DNA of 12,389 nucleotides from Candidatus Thorarchaeota archaeon (GCA_011364905.1 RDNZ01000062.1:1-12389); one strand, 5' to 3'. Shown: positions 3,719 to 11,331, numbered from the stretch's first letter. Numbers and translations are program-made. The notes: generated by a model not told the origin, from the letters alone.

Positions 3719-4222
3719 TCAATCAGTGGGCTCTGATTTCCAAAGAATGCGATGATACCTTTCAATGAGAACTTCAGGCCAGCTGCCGACAGACCTCAAA
3801 AGAAGGTCCGCTGTCAATCCAACCTCATTATCTATTTTGAGTTCCTTGAGGTTTCCGCATTGAAACAACGGAGAAAGGTCTACACGCTTCAGACGATTAT
3901 TGAGTAAGGAAACTTCTTGCAGATTTGGACACGAGCTCAAAGGTTCCAAATCTACCTCTTGGAGTCTGTTATGACCCAAATTTAAAACCTTTAAATTTCT
4001 CCCGCATTTTTCCAACGGAGACAGGTCAATCTCAGTGATGCTGTTGCTGCGAATGCTTAAGGTTTCAAGATTTTCACACCAGATTAATGGTAGTAGATCA
4101 ACCTGGGCTATATTGCGAAGATCGAGACTGATTCTAGTTTCATCGGATTCGAAACGTGCAGTTTTCTCCAGACCATTGGTTGTTACATACCTGATGAAGA
4201 TCTCTGATACCACTACCACCAA
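3719..4222 (-). CDS. Small leucine-rich repeat protein
   Basis: About four 24-25 aa repeats of the form LxxLxLxxNxLxxVDLxPLxxCxN (DLLPL, DLSPL, DLEPL, DLSPL). The exact start is uncertain because there are several GTGs. Confidence 0.88.
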   Translation of the reverse strand: MVVVVSEIFIRYVTTNGLEKTARFESDETRISLDLRNIAQVDLLPLIWCENLETLSIRSNSITEIDLSPLEKCGRNLKVLNLGHNRLQEVDLEPLSSCPNLQEVSLLNNRLKRVDLSPLFQCGNLKELKIDNEVGLTADLLLRSVGSWPEVLIERYHRILWKSEPTD

Positions 4223-4377: not shown

Positions 4378-5292
4378 ATGTCAAACCTGAGTGTTCCCTC
4401 AACATTCTCAATTGTGGCCCGAGACCCCATTAACGGTGACCTTGGAGTCATAGTCCAATCGAAATTTCCTGCTGTAGGCTCTGTTGTTCCATGGGCCAAA
4501 GCAAATGTTGGCGCTATAGCGACCCAGGCATGGGCAAATGTAGGATATGGCCCCAATGGCCTTAGCCTTCTCGAAAGTGGTCACAGTGCGTCAGAAACTC
4601 TGAAGACCCTACTCAATGAGGATGAAGGGCGAGAGCATCGTCAGATTGGTATTGTTGATGCCAAGGGGCAAGCGGTGGCTCACACAGGAAAGGAATGTAT
4701 GGAGTGGGCTGGTCAGATCATTGGAGATGGTTTCACATGCCAAGGTAACATCTTAGCCGGTGAAGATGTGGTCATCGAGATGGCTGAGGCATATGAAATC
4801 ACAGAAGGTGACTTGATAGACAAGTTGTTCGCAGGCCTTGCTGCAGGTCAAGCTGCAGGCGGAGACCGACGTGGAATGCAGTCAGCTTCCATTCTTGTGG
4901 TTCGAGAGAAGGGCGGTTATGAGGGAGGCAACGACAGATATGTTGACGTTCGTGTTGATGATCACCCGACTCCAATTGATGAGCTTGTTCGAATCTTCAA
5001 TATATACGACATGACACTTCTATCTCGTGAAGATCCGAATCTTCTTATGAGGATTGAAGGCGATTTACTTGCTATCATCCAAGAAGCATTGGTCACACTA
5101 GGGTATCTGGACAAAGTCTACGCTGATTTCTTCGACCAGAAAACCAAATCTGCTCTCACGGAATGGATTAACTCAAACAACTTCGAGAACAAGGCGAGAG
5201 ATGATGGGACCATCTGGCCCAGCGTTGTTGATTTTCTGCTAGAAGATGCTGATCTGATGACTGAATGGCTCAAACGAAAGCAAACTGAATAG
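4378..5292 (+). CDS. DUF1028 family Ntn-hydrolase-like protein with a C-terminal PG-binding-like domain
   Basis: TFSIVARDP, GAIATQA, HTG, QGNILAG, GGDRRGMQSA and DVRVDDH. The C-terminal IQEALVTLGYL...TKSALTEW...NFE pattern matches the appended domain. Confidence 0.9.
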   Translation: MSNLSVPSTFSIVARDPINGDLGVIVQSKFPAVGSVVPWAKANVGAIATQAWANVGYGPNGLSLLESGHSASETLKTLLNEDEGREHRQIGIVDAKGQAVAHTGKECMEWAGQIIGDGFTCQGNILAGEDVVIEMAEAYEITEGDLIDKLFAGLAAGQAAGGDRRGMQSASILVVREKGGYEGGNDRYVDVRVDDHPTPIDELVRIFNIYDMTLLSREDPNLLMRIEGDLLAIIQEALVTLGYLDKVYADFFDQKTKSALTEWINSNNFENKARDDGTIWPSVVDFLLEDADLMTEWLKRKQTE

Positions 5293-5295
5293 GTT

Positions 5296-6051
5296 TCAAG
5301 ATTCTTGATCAAGACTCTCAAGATTCTTCTTCCAAGCTCGTTCGATACGTTTTTCGCGGTTATAATGTCCCATCTCGCCTCTTGTTGCAGATGGATTTCC
5401 GCTGAGAATTACTCCTCCCTCGAATATTATCAAAAACGCGGCAACGATGGAAGCTGTGTAATCTCCAGCAACCCACATACCAAGAATCCATAGCCATAAT
5501 GATGTGATTAAAGTCCAAATCCCAGCAAAGAAGAAGAACCACTTCCGTTTCCAAGGTGGAGCCTTGAGAAATGTTGCATAATCAATCTTCACGGTTGGTT
5601 CGTAATATTCGTCTCTACACATCCCATCCAGCTTTATTCCCGCCCATAATCCTGCTATGACTCGTCCAATGGGATAAAGAAACGCAACAACTGCAAAGAT
5701 GAAAACAAACCGTAGTGCGAAGGTAGTCCAACCTGGTATGCCCCATGTTAGAACCCCGCCCCAGTTCAATGGCGTTTCAAGGGCCCAGAGATATCCCCAG
5801 ACAGCCAGTAGTCCTAGGATGGTTTCTATTAGGAGAACAGGAACAAGCGGATACGTCTTACCACGGGCCGCTTGAAACAGGATATTCCTTATCTCAGACG
5901 CTTGAATGATCTCTTGTTCATCAGGTCTGGGGTCTTTCTTGATCTGGCGCACAATCCTCCAAAACTCCTTACGTGTTGCGCCGGGCACCTCCTTTGGATT
6001 CTGTGTCACAATAGAAAGAATTTCCTGCAGTTTGAGCAAGCGGTCTGTCAT
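5296..6051 (-). CDS. Four-TM membrane protein, divergent peptidase M50 (site-2 protease)-like, lacking the Zn motif
   Basis: ATG start and four hydrophobic segments. FLYPIGRVIAGLWAGIKL and FLKAPPWKRKWFFFFAG resemble M50 motifs. The CDS is solid but the family call is tentative. Confidence 0.6.
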   Translation of the reverse strand: MTDRLLKLQEILSIVTQNPKEVPGATRKEFWRIVRQIKKDPRPDEQEIIQASEIRNILFQAARGKTYPLVPVLLIETILGLLAVWGYLWALETPLNWGGVLTWGIPGWTTFALRFVFIFAVVAFLYPIGRVIAGLWAGIKLDGMCRDEYYEPTVKIDYATFLKAPPWKRKWFFFFAGIWTLITSLWLWILGMWVAGDYTASIVAAFLIIFEGGVILSGNPSATRGEMGHYNREKRIERAWKKNLESLDQES

Positions 6052-6176: not shown

Positions 6177-6980
6177 ATGACGTCCAAGATTGAAAAAGGC
6201 ATCAGGGATCTCTCAAAGTATGACCTAGTCGTGAAACGTTTCAATCTAGCCATTGACGAGAACCAAGCGAGGTTGCCAGAACTTGAGTTTGACCGGGCAA
6301 GCTATCCTGGATTTGAAGCGCATCTATACACGATTGCTGATGCCGCACTATGGACTCCTAAATTGGATTCAACAGATGATGTTTTGGTTCTAAAAGGACC
6401 CAGAGATATAATCGATCCATATTACTCCTGGAAGAGGCTGCTAGATATTACTAACCGGATAATGAAGTATCTTGAATTCCATAGGCAGGAGGTGAAGCAT
6501 GGAATCATTCCGAGCACGAATTGGCTGTTCAATGAAAATCAGTGGTATCGCAAAAACTGGGATCACCCTCAGCATAAGACTTCGGCAGTTGATGAGTTTC
6601 TCGCCTCTGTAGACGAGTCGATTCAAGCGCACATTAAAGAGCTAAACGACCTCGGATTTCCAACAACCCAGAGTTGCTCCGGAATGGAAAAAGACCACCG
6701 CGACAGAGAACCATATCTGCCCTATGTCATGTTTGATGAGAGAGCATACCAAAGATCCAGTGCTCACTTGTTTACACTTGCAGACATTTCTGGATGGATA
6801 CCAAGTTATGGTCCGCACAATTTCGATATTGAAATCAGGCTACTAGATTCAACAGATGCAGAAGCATGCTGGGACAAGTTGGTTACGTCTGCTCGGACTC
6901 TTGCACGCCTGCTTCAACACTACAGAACAACTGTCAAACCCGACTTGGTGGTTGCTCGTCAACAATTCCAAATTCTCTAA
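6177..6980 (+). CDS. Hypothetical protein made of two homologous domains, with a TYW3/Taw3-like motif in the second
   Basis: VDESIQAHIKELNDLGFPTTQSCSG at aa 145-169. Internal repeat between aa 33-61 and aa 181-209. Confidence 0.7.
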   Translation: MTSKIEKGIRDLSKYDLVVKRFNLAIDENQARLPELEFDRASYPGFEAHLYTIADAALWTPKLDSTDDVLVLKGPRDIIDPYYSWKRLLDITNRIMKYLEFHRQEVKHGIIPSTNWLFNENQWYRKNWDHPQHKTSAVDEFLASVDESIQAHIKELNDLGFPTTQSCSGMEKDHRDREPYLPYVMFDERAYQRSSAHLFTLADISGWIPSYGPHNFDIEIRLLDSTDAEACWDKLVTSARTLARLLQHYRTTVKPDLVVARQQFQIL

Positions 6981-8769: not shown

Positions 8770-8937
8770 ATGGGAAAACTAGTATGTCCAAAATGCGGTG
8801 CAGAGGTTTCTGTACCTGTTCACTGCGGCAAAGAAATGCACAAAGAAGGCGACCAATTAGTCTGCTGGATGGGTTACACATGTGGTCATCAGGACATTCC
8901 TGAACACTGTGGTACCGTAATGGCTATCAAAGAGTAA
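8770..8937 (+). CDS. 55-aa Cys/His-rich metal-binding microprotein with two desulforedoxin/Zn-ribbon-like modules (absent from the ORF track)
   Basis: Translated by hand: MGKLVCPKCGAEVSVPVHCGKEMHKEGDQLVCWMGYTCGHQDIPEHCGTVMAIKE*. GAGG RBS at 8759-8762. The LVC...PxHCGxxM pattern occurs twice. Confidence 0.88.
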   Translation: MGKLVCPKCGAEVSVPVHCGKEMHKEGDQLVCWMGYTCGHQDIPEHCGTVMAIKE

Positions 8938-9587: not shown

Positions 9588-9992
9588 ATGCAGTTCGCAC
9601 CAATCATTGACAACATTCCCTTGATTACCATTGGCATAATTACCGGGTTGGTCTTTGGTTACTTTATCTGTGGCATGCCTAGTCTCAGCCTAGACTATCG
9701 GATTGGTTTGGGTATCATAATTAGTCCCTTTGCGGGTTTGATTACTGGATCTCTGCTAATTGCTTTGAATTCACCTTACTTCTCTTTTCCCCCTGAGAGT
9801 GAAGCCTTTGAGTTTCTTCTCCTAGCATTGTCCAACTTCGGCGGGTATATTCTAGGTGCTATGGCTAATTGGGCTCCGCTCCCTGAGAAGGCCCCAGAAA
9901 GACACGTTATCTTTGAGATAGATGAGGATGATCAATTTGACAGGGAAATAGAGGAGGCAATGGGCGGGGACTATAAAGCAGACAACAGTTAA
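9588..9992 (+). CDS. Hypothetical three-TM membrane protein with an acidic C-terminal tail
   Basis: GGAGG RBS at 9576-9580, three Gly-rich hydrophobic helices and the tail EIDEDDQFDREIEE. Confidence 0.8.
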   Translation: MQFAPIIDNIPLITIGIITGLVFGYFICGMPSLSLDYRIGLGIIISPFAGLITGSLLIALNSPYFSFPPESEAFEFLLLALSNFGGYILGAMANWAPLPEKAPERHVIFEIDEDDQFDREIEEAMGGDYKADNS

Positions 9993-10046
9993 AGGCAATT
10001 GTCCTACCTCTTCTTCATCGTTGAGTCCCTAGGAGGCAACTCAGAA

Positions 10047-11285
10047 GTGCGAAAAACGCTACCACATCTTCTTCTCATATTCTCGGTCACATGCCTTTTG
10101 TGGTCAATGGTTTTTGTACCAACCCAAGCAGCACCCCCGGCTGGTTGGAGTGGTGATGACAATCTTGGATTCTTACTTGAGGTGAACGGAATAAACGCTG
10201 CAACATCTGATGCCGCAAATCCGATTCAGCTGGATGTTTCAGAGTCCATCTTGATAAACATTACAATACTCACTGAGAGAAACCTGACAATCCAAGAGGC
10301 AAAGTTCCAGATGGCCTACATGTCTATCCCGATAATAAATCCGGCACCTTTCGACATGAGTATCTATGGTGAACTTCCTGAAGGGACAGGCGCAAGTTTC
10401 AATCTAACTCCCATATCTTTGGCACCACTCTTCACGTTTGCAAACTTGACGCTGGTTTCAGGCACTGTAACTGGTCTTTTTTCATTTACATATTCCCTAT
10501 CTTCCTCTCCAAGTACCAATGAAACTGTCAGTGAGAACTTCGTCTTGAGAATTGGTCCCACTGGAATTGGTGTGCTGTTTTCTGTAACTGGCCTGGTCAC
10601 TGTGGGATTTGCTGTGATGTCAGTGTTCTCACTAATCCTATCTCTTGATGAATTTCAAAGAGGAATTATGGCATCACGAAAATTAAGAGGAGCAACTCGA
10701 GGATCTGATGTTGGCATTTTTCCCTCAGCCGTAGTTCTTCGAAGAAAGCCAAAGAAAAGCTCTGAAACGATTGACAAGGACGAGCTGATTAGGCGAGTGA
10801 GTACAGCTGCAGACAAATCCTGGGATGCAAAACGGTGTCCGCAGTGCGGTCGAAAGTGGAAGAAAAACGCTCCGAACTGTAGTAAGTGCGGTATCGATAC
10901 TGCGTCTGCTGTGCGGTTCTTCTCCCAAGACATTGCAGAGTACGCACCAAAGGCTCTGAGAGTCATCAAGCCTAAGTCAAAAATTACAGTGGGTCAGCTA
11001 GGAAAGAAACTGAAGTTGAAGTCCGATAAGGCTGGGGCTCTAGCAGCAGCTCTTGTCGATATGGGCGTACTGCAGACAAAGACTGTCAAGGTCCCACTAA
11101 ACAAAGTTGCATTTTCTGGAATGACCTTGGCTGGGATCTATTGGTCAACCATGCAGATGTTCTATGGAGCGACGCCTCACTGGTCTGTCGTTCTTCTAAC
11201 CACAACTGCAGGTCTTGTGGTATCTGTCTTGATTGGATACTTCATGAATTTCCTTGCTAGAGTGCCCTCGCTAGGATATGATTAG
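10047..11285 (+). CDS. Membrane protein: signal peptide, ectodomain, TM, Zn ribbon, winged-helix-like region and two C-terminal TMs
   Basis: GTG at 10047 with GGAGG at 10032-10036 gives a canonical signal peptide (RK-hydrophobic-TQA|A). CPQC-x10-CSKC Zn ribbon and the segment ITVGQLGKKLKLKSDKAGALAAALVDMGVL. The ORF track starts earlier, at TTG 9999. Confidence 0.8.
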   Translation: MRKTLPHLLLIFSVTCLLWSMVFVPTQAAPPAGWSGDDNLGFLLEVNGINAATSDAANPIQLDVSESILINITILTERNLTIQEAKFQMAYMSIPIINPAPFDMSIYGELPEGTGASFNLTPISLAPLFTFANLTLVSGTVTGLFSFTYSLSSSPSTNETVSENFVLRIGPTGIGVLFSVTGLVTVGFAVMSVFSLILSLDEFQRGIMASRKLRGATRGSDVGIFPSAVVLRRKPKKSSETIDKDELIRRVSTAADKSWDAKRCPQCGRKWKKNAPNCSKCGIDTASAVRFFSQDIAEYAPKALRVIKPKSKITVGQLGKKLKLKSDKAGALAAALVDMGVLQTKTVKVPLNKVAFSGMTLAGIYWSTMQMFYGATPHWSVVLLTTTAGLVVSVLIGYFMNFLARVPSLGYD

Positions 11286-11293
11286 GTCATAAG

Positions 11294-11331
11294 ATGGAAC
11301 GGCGCCGCTCCGTTCCATTCCCCTCTTTTTT
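11294..11331 (+). terminator. Hairpin followed by a T tract (putative terminator)
   Basis: ATGGAACGG (11294-11302), a 7-nt loop, CCGTTCCAT (11310-11318), then a pyrimidine run ending in T6 (11326-11331). It begins 8 nt after the stop at 11285. Confidence 0.6.

Follow-up and report, generated by a model that had tools for sequence, protein, structure and literature searches.

A Thorarchaeaceae membrane protein with a predicted Ig-like ectodomain and a predicted winged helix tethered at both ends to the membrane

Introduction

The closest relatives that eukaryotes are known to have are the Asgard archaea, and to our knowledge almost nothing has been learned of how these organisms perceive their surroundings or attach to them. 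Here we describe a gene for a 412-amino-acid (aa) membrane protein in a stretch of DNA of 12,389 nucleotides (nt) from Candidatus Thorarchaeota archaeon (GCA_011364905.1 RDNZ01000062.1:1-12389), the whole of which is called the window below. The protein belongs to a family that is near-universal in one thorarchaeal family, occurs in two copies, is under purifying selection, and goes by no name beyond 'zinc ribbon domain-containing protein'. Analysis of the sequence and of structure models predicts an N-terminal Ig-like ectodomain outside the cell and, inside, a zinc ribbon and a winged-helix (WH) domain held between transmembrane (TM) helices. The domains themselves are familiar; their arrangement is undescribed in the literature searched.

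The gene and its parts

The listing of open reading frames (ORFs) opens the frame at a TTG codon (9999–11285). Judged from sequence, the GTG at 10047 is the true start of the gene, because the homologues all begin with MR(K/R)TLPH at this position and a GGAGG lies 10 nt upstream. The features of the gene and of its immediate flanks, all on the plus strand, are as follows.

10032–10036 (+): Shine-Dalgarno-like GGAGG, 10 nt before the GTG, read directly
10047–11285 (+): gene for the 412-aa membrane protein, stop codon 11283–11285; start in agreement with 33 aligned orthologues
10047–10130 (+): signal peptide, aa 1–28; hydrophobic core aa 8–26, site TQA/AP
10131–10562 (+): ectodomain, aa 29–172, predicted Ig-like (E-set) beta sandwich, from motif scan, model strands and fold matches
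10563–10646 (+): TM1, aa 173–200, from strong hydropathy and the model; the helix runs on into the cytoplasm to about aa 215
10647–10775 (+): basic juxtamembrane segment, aa 201–243, conserved, with the strand VVLRR (aa 229–233) and KPKK
10776–10820 (+): helix alpha-0, aa 244–258, preceding the zinc ribbon, from structure models
10836–10889 (+): C4 zinc ribbon CPQC-x10-CSKC, aa 264–281, from motif scan
10899–11093 (+): predicted WH domain with leading helices, aa 285–349, from the loop model and VIA matches
11097–11165 (+): TM2, aa 351–373, a model helix, moderately hydrophobic
11181–11261 (+): TM3, aa 379–405, from hydropathy and the model
11262–11282 (+): short C-terminal tail ending in LGYD, with G410 and Y411 invariant
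11294–11331 (+): terminator-like hairpin (9-bp arms, 11294–11318) and T-run (11326–11331)

Most of these parts had been named in a first-pass annotation of the window, and its coordinates for the gene (10047–11285), for the first membrane segment (about 10565–10645) and for the cysteine motif (10836–10889) all check out by hydropathy and motif scan. The signal peptide that it proposed is likewise found at aa 1–28, in a stretch where the full-length AlphaFold2 model (mean predicted local distance difference test score, pLDDT, 75.7) is unconfident at aa 22–28 (pLDDT < 50). The beta-like ectodomain of about 145 aa is confirmed together with its five N-x-T sequons (aa 71, 79, 119, 133, and 158), and is modelled by AlphaFold2 as a beta sandwich. 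The closing two-TM hairpin appears as two model helices (aa 351–373 and 379–405), separated by a five-residue turn with a conserved proline, and basic residues lie beyond TM3. Hydropathy places a moderately hydrophobic segment at aa 356–376 and a strong TM segment at aa 381–404; because the first helix of the hairpin is only moderately hydrophobic, TM2 rests on the model and on conservation.

The orientation in the membrane is indicated by two features of the sequence. In 34 orthologues, four to nine sequons fall within the ectodomain of about 145 aa, whereas none or one falls within the remaining residues (about 265). The loop between TM1 and TM2 (aa 201–355, 155 residues) is positively charged, with 35 lysine or arginine residues against 14 aspartate or glutamate residues. 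The confinement of the sequons to the region before TM1 and the charge of the loop place the beta-rich domain outside the cell and the zinc ribbon and WH inside. We therefore hold to a predicted topology in which the ectodomain faces outward and the loop lies in the cytoplasm, tethered to the membrane at both ends, as the first-pass annotation had also supposed.

The predicted cytoplasmic zinc ribbon and winged helix

When the loop was modelled alone, on a 42-sequence alignment that includes distant relatives, the model reached a pLDDT of 79 and a predicted template modelling score (pTM) of 0.68. Residues 294–349, approximately, are predicted to follow the order helix–strand–helix–helix–strand (helix 300–306, strand 312–314, helix 315–322, helix 326–338, and strand 342–347). 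An all-against-all VIA search with the loop returned WH domains for nearly all of the 50 best matches, over aa 294–349, with Z scores of 4.5–6.5 and a root-mean-square deviation (rmsd) of 1.6–3.0 Å over 52–77 residues, the lowest rmsd (1.6 Å) being over 52–57 residues. A WH fold is thus predicted in the cytoplasmic loop, in the segment (about 10950–11081) that had previously been described as resembling a winged helix-turn-helix (HTH). It emerged from VIA only: Foldseek with the cytoplasmic domain gave nothing at E ≤ 0.001, and a search of the ESM Atlas with the cytoplasmic part gave scores at noise level (0.75–0.79), the first being a small archaeal cluster of zinc-ribbon/HTH_24 proteins.

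The kind of WH is less clearly defined than the fold. The three top matches are protein-binding domains, from GATOR1 (Z 6.5), FAM91A1 (Z 6.4) and the SEA complex (Z 6.0), and are followed by DNA- or RNA-binding WHs at Z 4.5–5.6 and an rmsd of 1.6–3 Å (PH1932, Z-alpha, SelB, IclR, MarR, and TFE-alpha). The structural comparison of a DNA-binding WH with an ESCRT-II/PCI-like WH, which the first-pass annotation had proposed, thus supports the WH and ends in a tie over its subtype, with protein-binding domains ranked first. In profile searches of the 42 family members, the PCI profile gave one weak match (E 0.055) in one member only, and the Pfam DNA-binding HTH families gave no consistent match (one or two of the 42 members, E 0.008–0.1).

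The zinc ribbon sits as an insert between helix alpha-0 and the first helices of the WH. Its four cysteines are invariant in the 42 members. Against the Pfam families DZR (PF12773) and Zn_ribbon_3 (PF13248), however, it scores 19–21 bits where the cut-offs are 27, and such sub-threshold DZR matches occur in 32 of the 42. Its likeness in sequence is generic, to the ribbons of nucleic-acid-binding proteins and, weakly, to ribosomal zinc ribbons. In several genera, the ribbon is removed by a clean in-frame deletion (aa ~259–293) and the rest of the protein is retained, including helix alpha-0, the WH, the juxtamembrane segment and the TM hairpin (examples are L061:4001-5116, L062:4001-5122, L064:4001-5107, and P0122).

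The third helix of the WH (H3), which would be the recognition helix of a DNA-binding domain, reads SDKAGALAAALVDMG and is nearly unchanged across the 20 orthologues compared. It is rich in alanine, glycine and valine in the paralogues and distant relatives as well, and has no conserved basic or polar position. The net charge of the module comprising the ribbon and the WH ranges from +11 to +16 in orthologues, from +8 to +12 in typical paralogues, and from −4 to +19 in distant members, three of which fall between −2 and −4. The deletion of the ribbon, the non-polar H3 and the variable charge together argue against sequence-specific reading of DNA as the conserved function of the module. Unspecific binding of nucleic acid or of lipid, judged from sequence, would be compatible with all three. 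Of the earlier proposal of a sensor-linked loop that binds nucleic acid or protein, the architecture stands, whereas the version in which the loop reads DNA is weakened by the non-polar H3, the dispensable ribbon, and the three neutral or acidic modules.

The ectodomain fold

The ectodomain, for which the first-pass annotation had suggested a test for an Ig-like fold, is modelled as an Ig-like sandwich of the E-set type. Foldseek matches it to NPC2, RhoGDI, subunits of TRAP, TMEM106B and Wzt (E 1e-4 to 1e-3, probabilities 0.99–1.00), and VIA matches it to RhoGDI (Z 10.6, rmsd 2.8 Å over 121 residues), Spo0M (Z 10.4), and NPC2 (Z 9.8). When TM1 is included, the top VIA match is TRAP-alpha (8b5l_q, within the ribosome–Sec61–TRAP complex), with Z 11.2 over 146 of 153 residues at an rmsd of 12.4 Å. 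Since TRAP-alpha, RhoGDI, Spo0M and NPC2 tie, the comparison establishes the fold class alone; the ectodomain belongs by its model to the E-set/Ig-like beta sandwiches, and this common fold implies no common function.

TRAP subunits have been reported from Asgard archaea (PMC10307638, PMC11417166). None of the 42 family members matches Pfam TRAP_alpha (PF03896), even at E ≤ 1, and the profiles for TRAP_alpha, -gamma and -delta find nothing in the window's genome. As the TRAP_alpha profile yields no match above its cut-off in 400 Asgard genomes, its silence on the present family lacks the power to decide. A match to TRAP_beta in the window's genome was rejected; it falls in an unrelated frame of 562 aa, and the profile also fires in control genomes.

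Distribution, conservation and variants

A word-indexed search returned 229 relatives, the best 120 of which are 62–90% identical; the named organisms among these 120 are all Candidatus Thorarchaeota, and the proteins go under the labels 'hypothetical' or 'zinc ribbon domain-containing'. The superfamily is small, as an exhaustive search by profile through 1.84 billion representative proteins yielded only 57 clusters. Searches of Pfam, NCBIfam and PDB sequences gave only generic zinc-ribbon matches below cut-off, and no characterised family; the literature searched holds no description of the family or of its architecture. That the protein belongs to no described family, as the first-pass annotation had it, is therefore upheld. 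Absence of a predicted WH fold, an extracellular position of the ribbon and WH, and a match to a characterised family were each looked for as evidence against that description, and none was found.

A phyletic profile centres the protein on one family of the phylum. The orthologue profile matches 84 of the 85 genomes of the window's own family (Thorarchaeaceae), and gives weak matches only elsewhere in the phylum; with strong matches counted, the orthologue is present in about 77 of the 85. The superfamily profile adds members from a small number of further Asgard families (5 of 5, 4 of 4, 8 of 19 and 6 of 135 genomes, the 8 being weak matches). A paralogue of approximately 470–560 aa, about 24% identical, occurs in the window's genome and in most of its relatives, and carries a long acidic C-terminal tail after a basic stop-transfer sequence.

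Judged from sequence comparison, every region of the protein is under purifying selection. For 29 orthologues of one genus, a rough Nei–Gojobori estimate of the ratio of nonsynonymous to synonymous substitution rates (dN/dS) gave 0.15 for the ectodomain, 0.13 for TM1, 0.10 for the hairpin, 0.06 for the cytoplasmic loop and 0.06 for the WH, values that are indicative only because dS is saturated (~1.5–2). At about 0.15, no diversifying selection is seen on the ectodomain. Mean column identity agrees with this, at 0.92 for the WH, the most conserved part, 0.89 for the juxtamembrane segment, 0.87 for TM2, 0.86 for the zinc ribbon and 0.68 for the ectodomain; the parts inside the cell and the hairpin thus exceed the ectodomain.

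Three genomes of a single genus (92, 96, and 88% complete) have lost the gene by excision, with the remainder of the locus intact; there, the small gene for an acidic-tailed protein (described below) is followed directly by the gene for an MBL-fold protein (loci L092, L093, and L094; G392:C46, G391:C86, and G394:C90). These genomes retain the paralogue elsewhere. A metagenome relative of 1225 aa (P0152) begins with a VWA domain and Ig-like repeats (Big_3_5), placed ahead of the family core, which runs in the order of the family's last sandwich, TM, zinc ribbon, WH and hairpin. This VWA/Ig front indicates an outer part of modular build, like that of adhesins and receptors.

In another Asgard family, two distant relatives of 507 and 518 aa lie in tandem (L089:3851-7208, G308:C4), and both copies share the same lysine-rich C-terminal sequence.

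Gene neighbourhood and candidate partners

Across 20 loci drawn from many genera, the genes around the target gene keep one order, namely ferredoxin, acyl-CoA dehydrogenase, a 55-aa Cys-rich protein, nitroreductase, a small membrane protein, the 412-aa protein, and the MBL-fold protein. In some loci, the strand of the nitroreductase gene flips, which puts it outside the transcription unit of the target gene. The small membrane protein is the nearest neighbour upstream.

9588–9992 (+): gene for a protein of 134 aa, predicted to have three TM helices; its acidic tail (4 lysine or arginine against 13 aspartate or glutamate residues) is conserved and has the motif HIIFEPxDDxEFDREIEE

The 134-aa protein has no match in Pfam or NCBIfam. 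Its gene is present in 78 of the 85 genomes of Thorarchaeaceae, and in 17 of 20 inspected loci it lies directly upstream of the target gene and in the same orientation; in the window it ends 54 nt before the GTG. From this gap of 54 nt, and from the hairpin and T-run after the stop codon of the target gene, it is likely that the two genes form a unit and are probably co-transcribed, the hairpin itself being weak (−14.1 kcal/mol, z = −1.7).

The net charge is +15 for the module of the 412-aa protein, −9 for the tail of the 134-aa protein, and −18 for the tail of the paralogue. By this charge complementarity, the acidic tails are natural candidate partners of the basic modules. The paralogue also has a neighbour of its own: in 14 of 18 loci, which span many genera, a stand-alone CheY-like receiver (PF00072, E 2.7e-19) is encoded upstream of it in the same orientation. 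In one example, the receiver (L084:3467-3892, plus strand) precedes the paralogue (L084:3965-5473) by a gap of 72 nt. The acidic pocket and the phospho-acceptor aspartate of the receiver look intact by eye, and no histidine kinase was seen within 4 kb of the pair. The position of the receiver gene just upstream of the paralogue is a hint of a link to phospho-signalling.

The 55-aa Cys/His-rich protein of the conserved order is encoded at 8770–8937 (+) in the window and is absent from the list of ORFs drawn up at 60 aa. It has a sub-threshold match to Zn_Ribbon_1, and is 60–89% identical to its counterparts in 17 of 20 related loci; because it is conserved at the same syntenic position, the gene is very likely real.

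A proposed membrane-clamped platform and its alternatives

We tentatively favour an explanation in which the 412-aa protein is a Thorarchaeaceae-specific, N-glycosylated receptor or adaptor at the cell surface, and its inner WH platform binds proteins rather than a DNA sequence. What sequence and models predict is the architecture of the protein, its topology and folds, the pattern of conservation and the gene pairs; that it binds a ligand, binds a partner, or signals is what we infer. The E-set sandwich would face outward and bind an external ligand or partner, and the three TM helices would form a conserved membrane core. Between TM1 and the TM2–TM3 hairpin, an extended WH would carry the inserted zinc ribbon, and because there is almost no linker between the WH and the membrane helices, it would have to lie flat on the inner face of the membrane. 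From there it may act via contacts with proteins, and perhaps with lipid head groups, with no reading of DNA sequence. The acidic tail of the upstream three-TM protein would be a candidate partner in trans for the 412-aa protein, and the paralogue's own acidic tail a candidate partner in cis.

With still less assurance, this reading could be extended to a transmembrane coupling system of Asgard archaea, undescribed and having no bacterial or eukaryotic counterpart. Sensing by the E-set domain would then alter, through the three-helix core, the availability of the membrane-clamped WH, and the WH would recruit cytoplasmic partners. The candidates would be the acidic tail of the co-operonic protein for the target protein, and its own tail together with the neighbouring receiver for the paralogue.

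Several observations weigh against a protein-binding platform with these partners. The protein-binding WHs lie within one Z unit of the DNA-binding WHs, so that the fold comparison is a tie, and the strong positive charge of the loop would suit nucleic acid equally well. The pairing with the small gene is not obligate, as three genomes keep the small gene without the target gene and three loci have the target gene without the small one. Among relatives outside Thorarchaeaceae, neither the small acidic-tailed gene nor the receiver was found as a neighbour, and no neighbour is conserved throughout the superfamily. Moreover, the whole neighbourhood is syntenic, which makes adjacency weak evidence of a functional link, and the pairings are to be taken as leads.

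Three other explanations bear on different parts of the same protein. It could be a structural envelope or adhesion protein in which the ectodomain does the work and the ribbon, WH and hairpin serve as an anchor on anionic lipids. The Ig-like ectodomain with its glycosylation sequons, the VWA/Ig-repeat variant that resembles adhesins, the basic residues close to the membrane, and the loss of the gene where the paralogue stays would all suit such a protein. We regard it as unlikely nonetheless, since conservation is highest in the cytoplasmic module and the hairpin and lowest in the ectodomain, which is unexpected for a mere anchor, and since H3 is nearly unchanged among the orthologues compared. 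The protein could also be a membrane-bound one-component transcription regulator or a tether between DNA and membrane, in which the ectodomain controls DNA binding by the ribbon and WH, on the model of ToxR/CadC or of the WH proteins MAN1/LEM2 of the nuclear envelope. The predicted WH fold, whose tied matches include the DNA-binding MarR, IclR, ArsR-like, TFE-alpha and Z-alpha domains, is consistent with this proposal, as are the charge of the orthologous modules and the generic likeness of the ribbon to those of nucleic-acid-binding proteins. What makes it distinctly improbable is that no subfamily has conserved basic or polar residues in H3, that several genera delete the ribbon and keep all else, that three distant members carry a net negative charge, and that the DNA-binding HTH families of Pfam give no consistent match; in addition, about three residues at most separate the WH from TM2, which leaves little room for a DNA duplex.

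The top structural match of the ectodomain with TM1 raises the further idea of a translocon- or ribosome-associated accessory like TRAP-alpha, with the sandwich beside the Sec channel and the basic module in contact with the ribosome. The order of signal peptide, sandwich, TM and charged cytosolic part is the same, the ribbon weakly resembles ribosomal zinc ribbons, and there are the reports of Asgard TRAP subunits cited above. The idea seems highly improbable to us, as the match ties with RhoGDI, Spo0M and NPC2, TRAP-alpha has a single TM and no WH, and the family is not linked to genes for Sec, OST or SRP; the TRAP_alpha profile, low in power as it is in Asgard genomes, matches no family member, and TRAP_alpha, -gamma and -delta find nothing in the window's genome.

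If the inner WH is indeed a docking platform, as we tentatively favour, the family would represent a lineage-specific way to pass information or force across an archaeal membrane; if the WH binds DNA, it would be an archaeal membrane-bound regulator. The cytoplasmic loop of 155 aa is small enough for direct biochemistry.

Comparison with known systems

The ToxR/CadC-type proteins are bacterial membrane-integrated one-component regulators with an N-terminal cytoplasmic wHTH of the OmpR type, a single TM, and a C-terminal periplasmic domain. Like these, the present protein couples, in one polypeptide, an outside domain to a WH at the inner face of the membrane. Unlike them, it has the reverse orientation, with the sensor-like domain N-terminal behind a signal peptide; its WH lies between TM1 and the TM hairpin and not at a free N-terminus, three TMs are present, the recognition helix is non-polar, and DNA binding by the WH is putative. 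None of the 42 members matches Trans_reg_C (the OmpR-type profile) at E ≤ 1. By its sequence, then, the protein lacks the OmpR-type domain and the order of parts that mark ToxR/CadC-type regulators.

TRAP-alpha (SSR1) shares with it the signal peptide, a luminal or extracellular sandwich, a TM, and a charged cytosolic part, which in TRAP-alpha is a short unstructured tail after a single TM, with no zinc ribbon, WH or hairpin. Membrane proteins of the DZR and Zn_ribbon_3 classes have a comparable C4 ribbon (CPxCG...CxxCG) on the cytoplasmic side, whereas the ribbon described here is inserted in an extended WH, scores below the cut-off of either class, and is dispensable in some genera. The name 'zinc ribbon domain-containing protein', given by NCBI to several orthologues, covers 26 of the 412 residues.

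The closest likeness for the WH is to those of GATOR1/SEA (Nprl2/3) and FAM91A1, the best fold matches (Z 6.0–6.5 over 73–75 residues), and in these, as in the WHs of PCI and ESCRT-II proteins, H3 is not specialised for DNA. All four, however, are soluble complex subunits rather than membrane-clamped loops, and share no sequence homology with the present family.

Other observations in the window

The ORF at 4378–5292 (+) encodes a DUF1028 protein with a fused domain that putatively binds peptidoglycan (PG_binding_2, E 2.4e-16), which is odd for an archaeon that lacks peptidoglycan. Just upstream of the DUF1028 gene, the other strand encodes a small leucine-rich-repeat protein (3719–4222). The ORFs at 5296–6051 (−) and 6177–6980 (+), of 251 and 267 aa, have no Pfam match at E ≤ 0.01; the latter has a conserved counterpart, 57% identical, in at least one related locus (L066).

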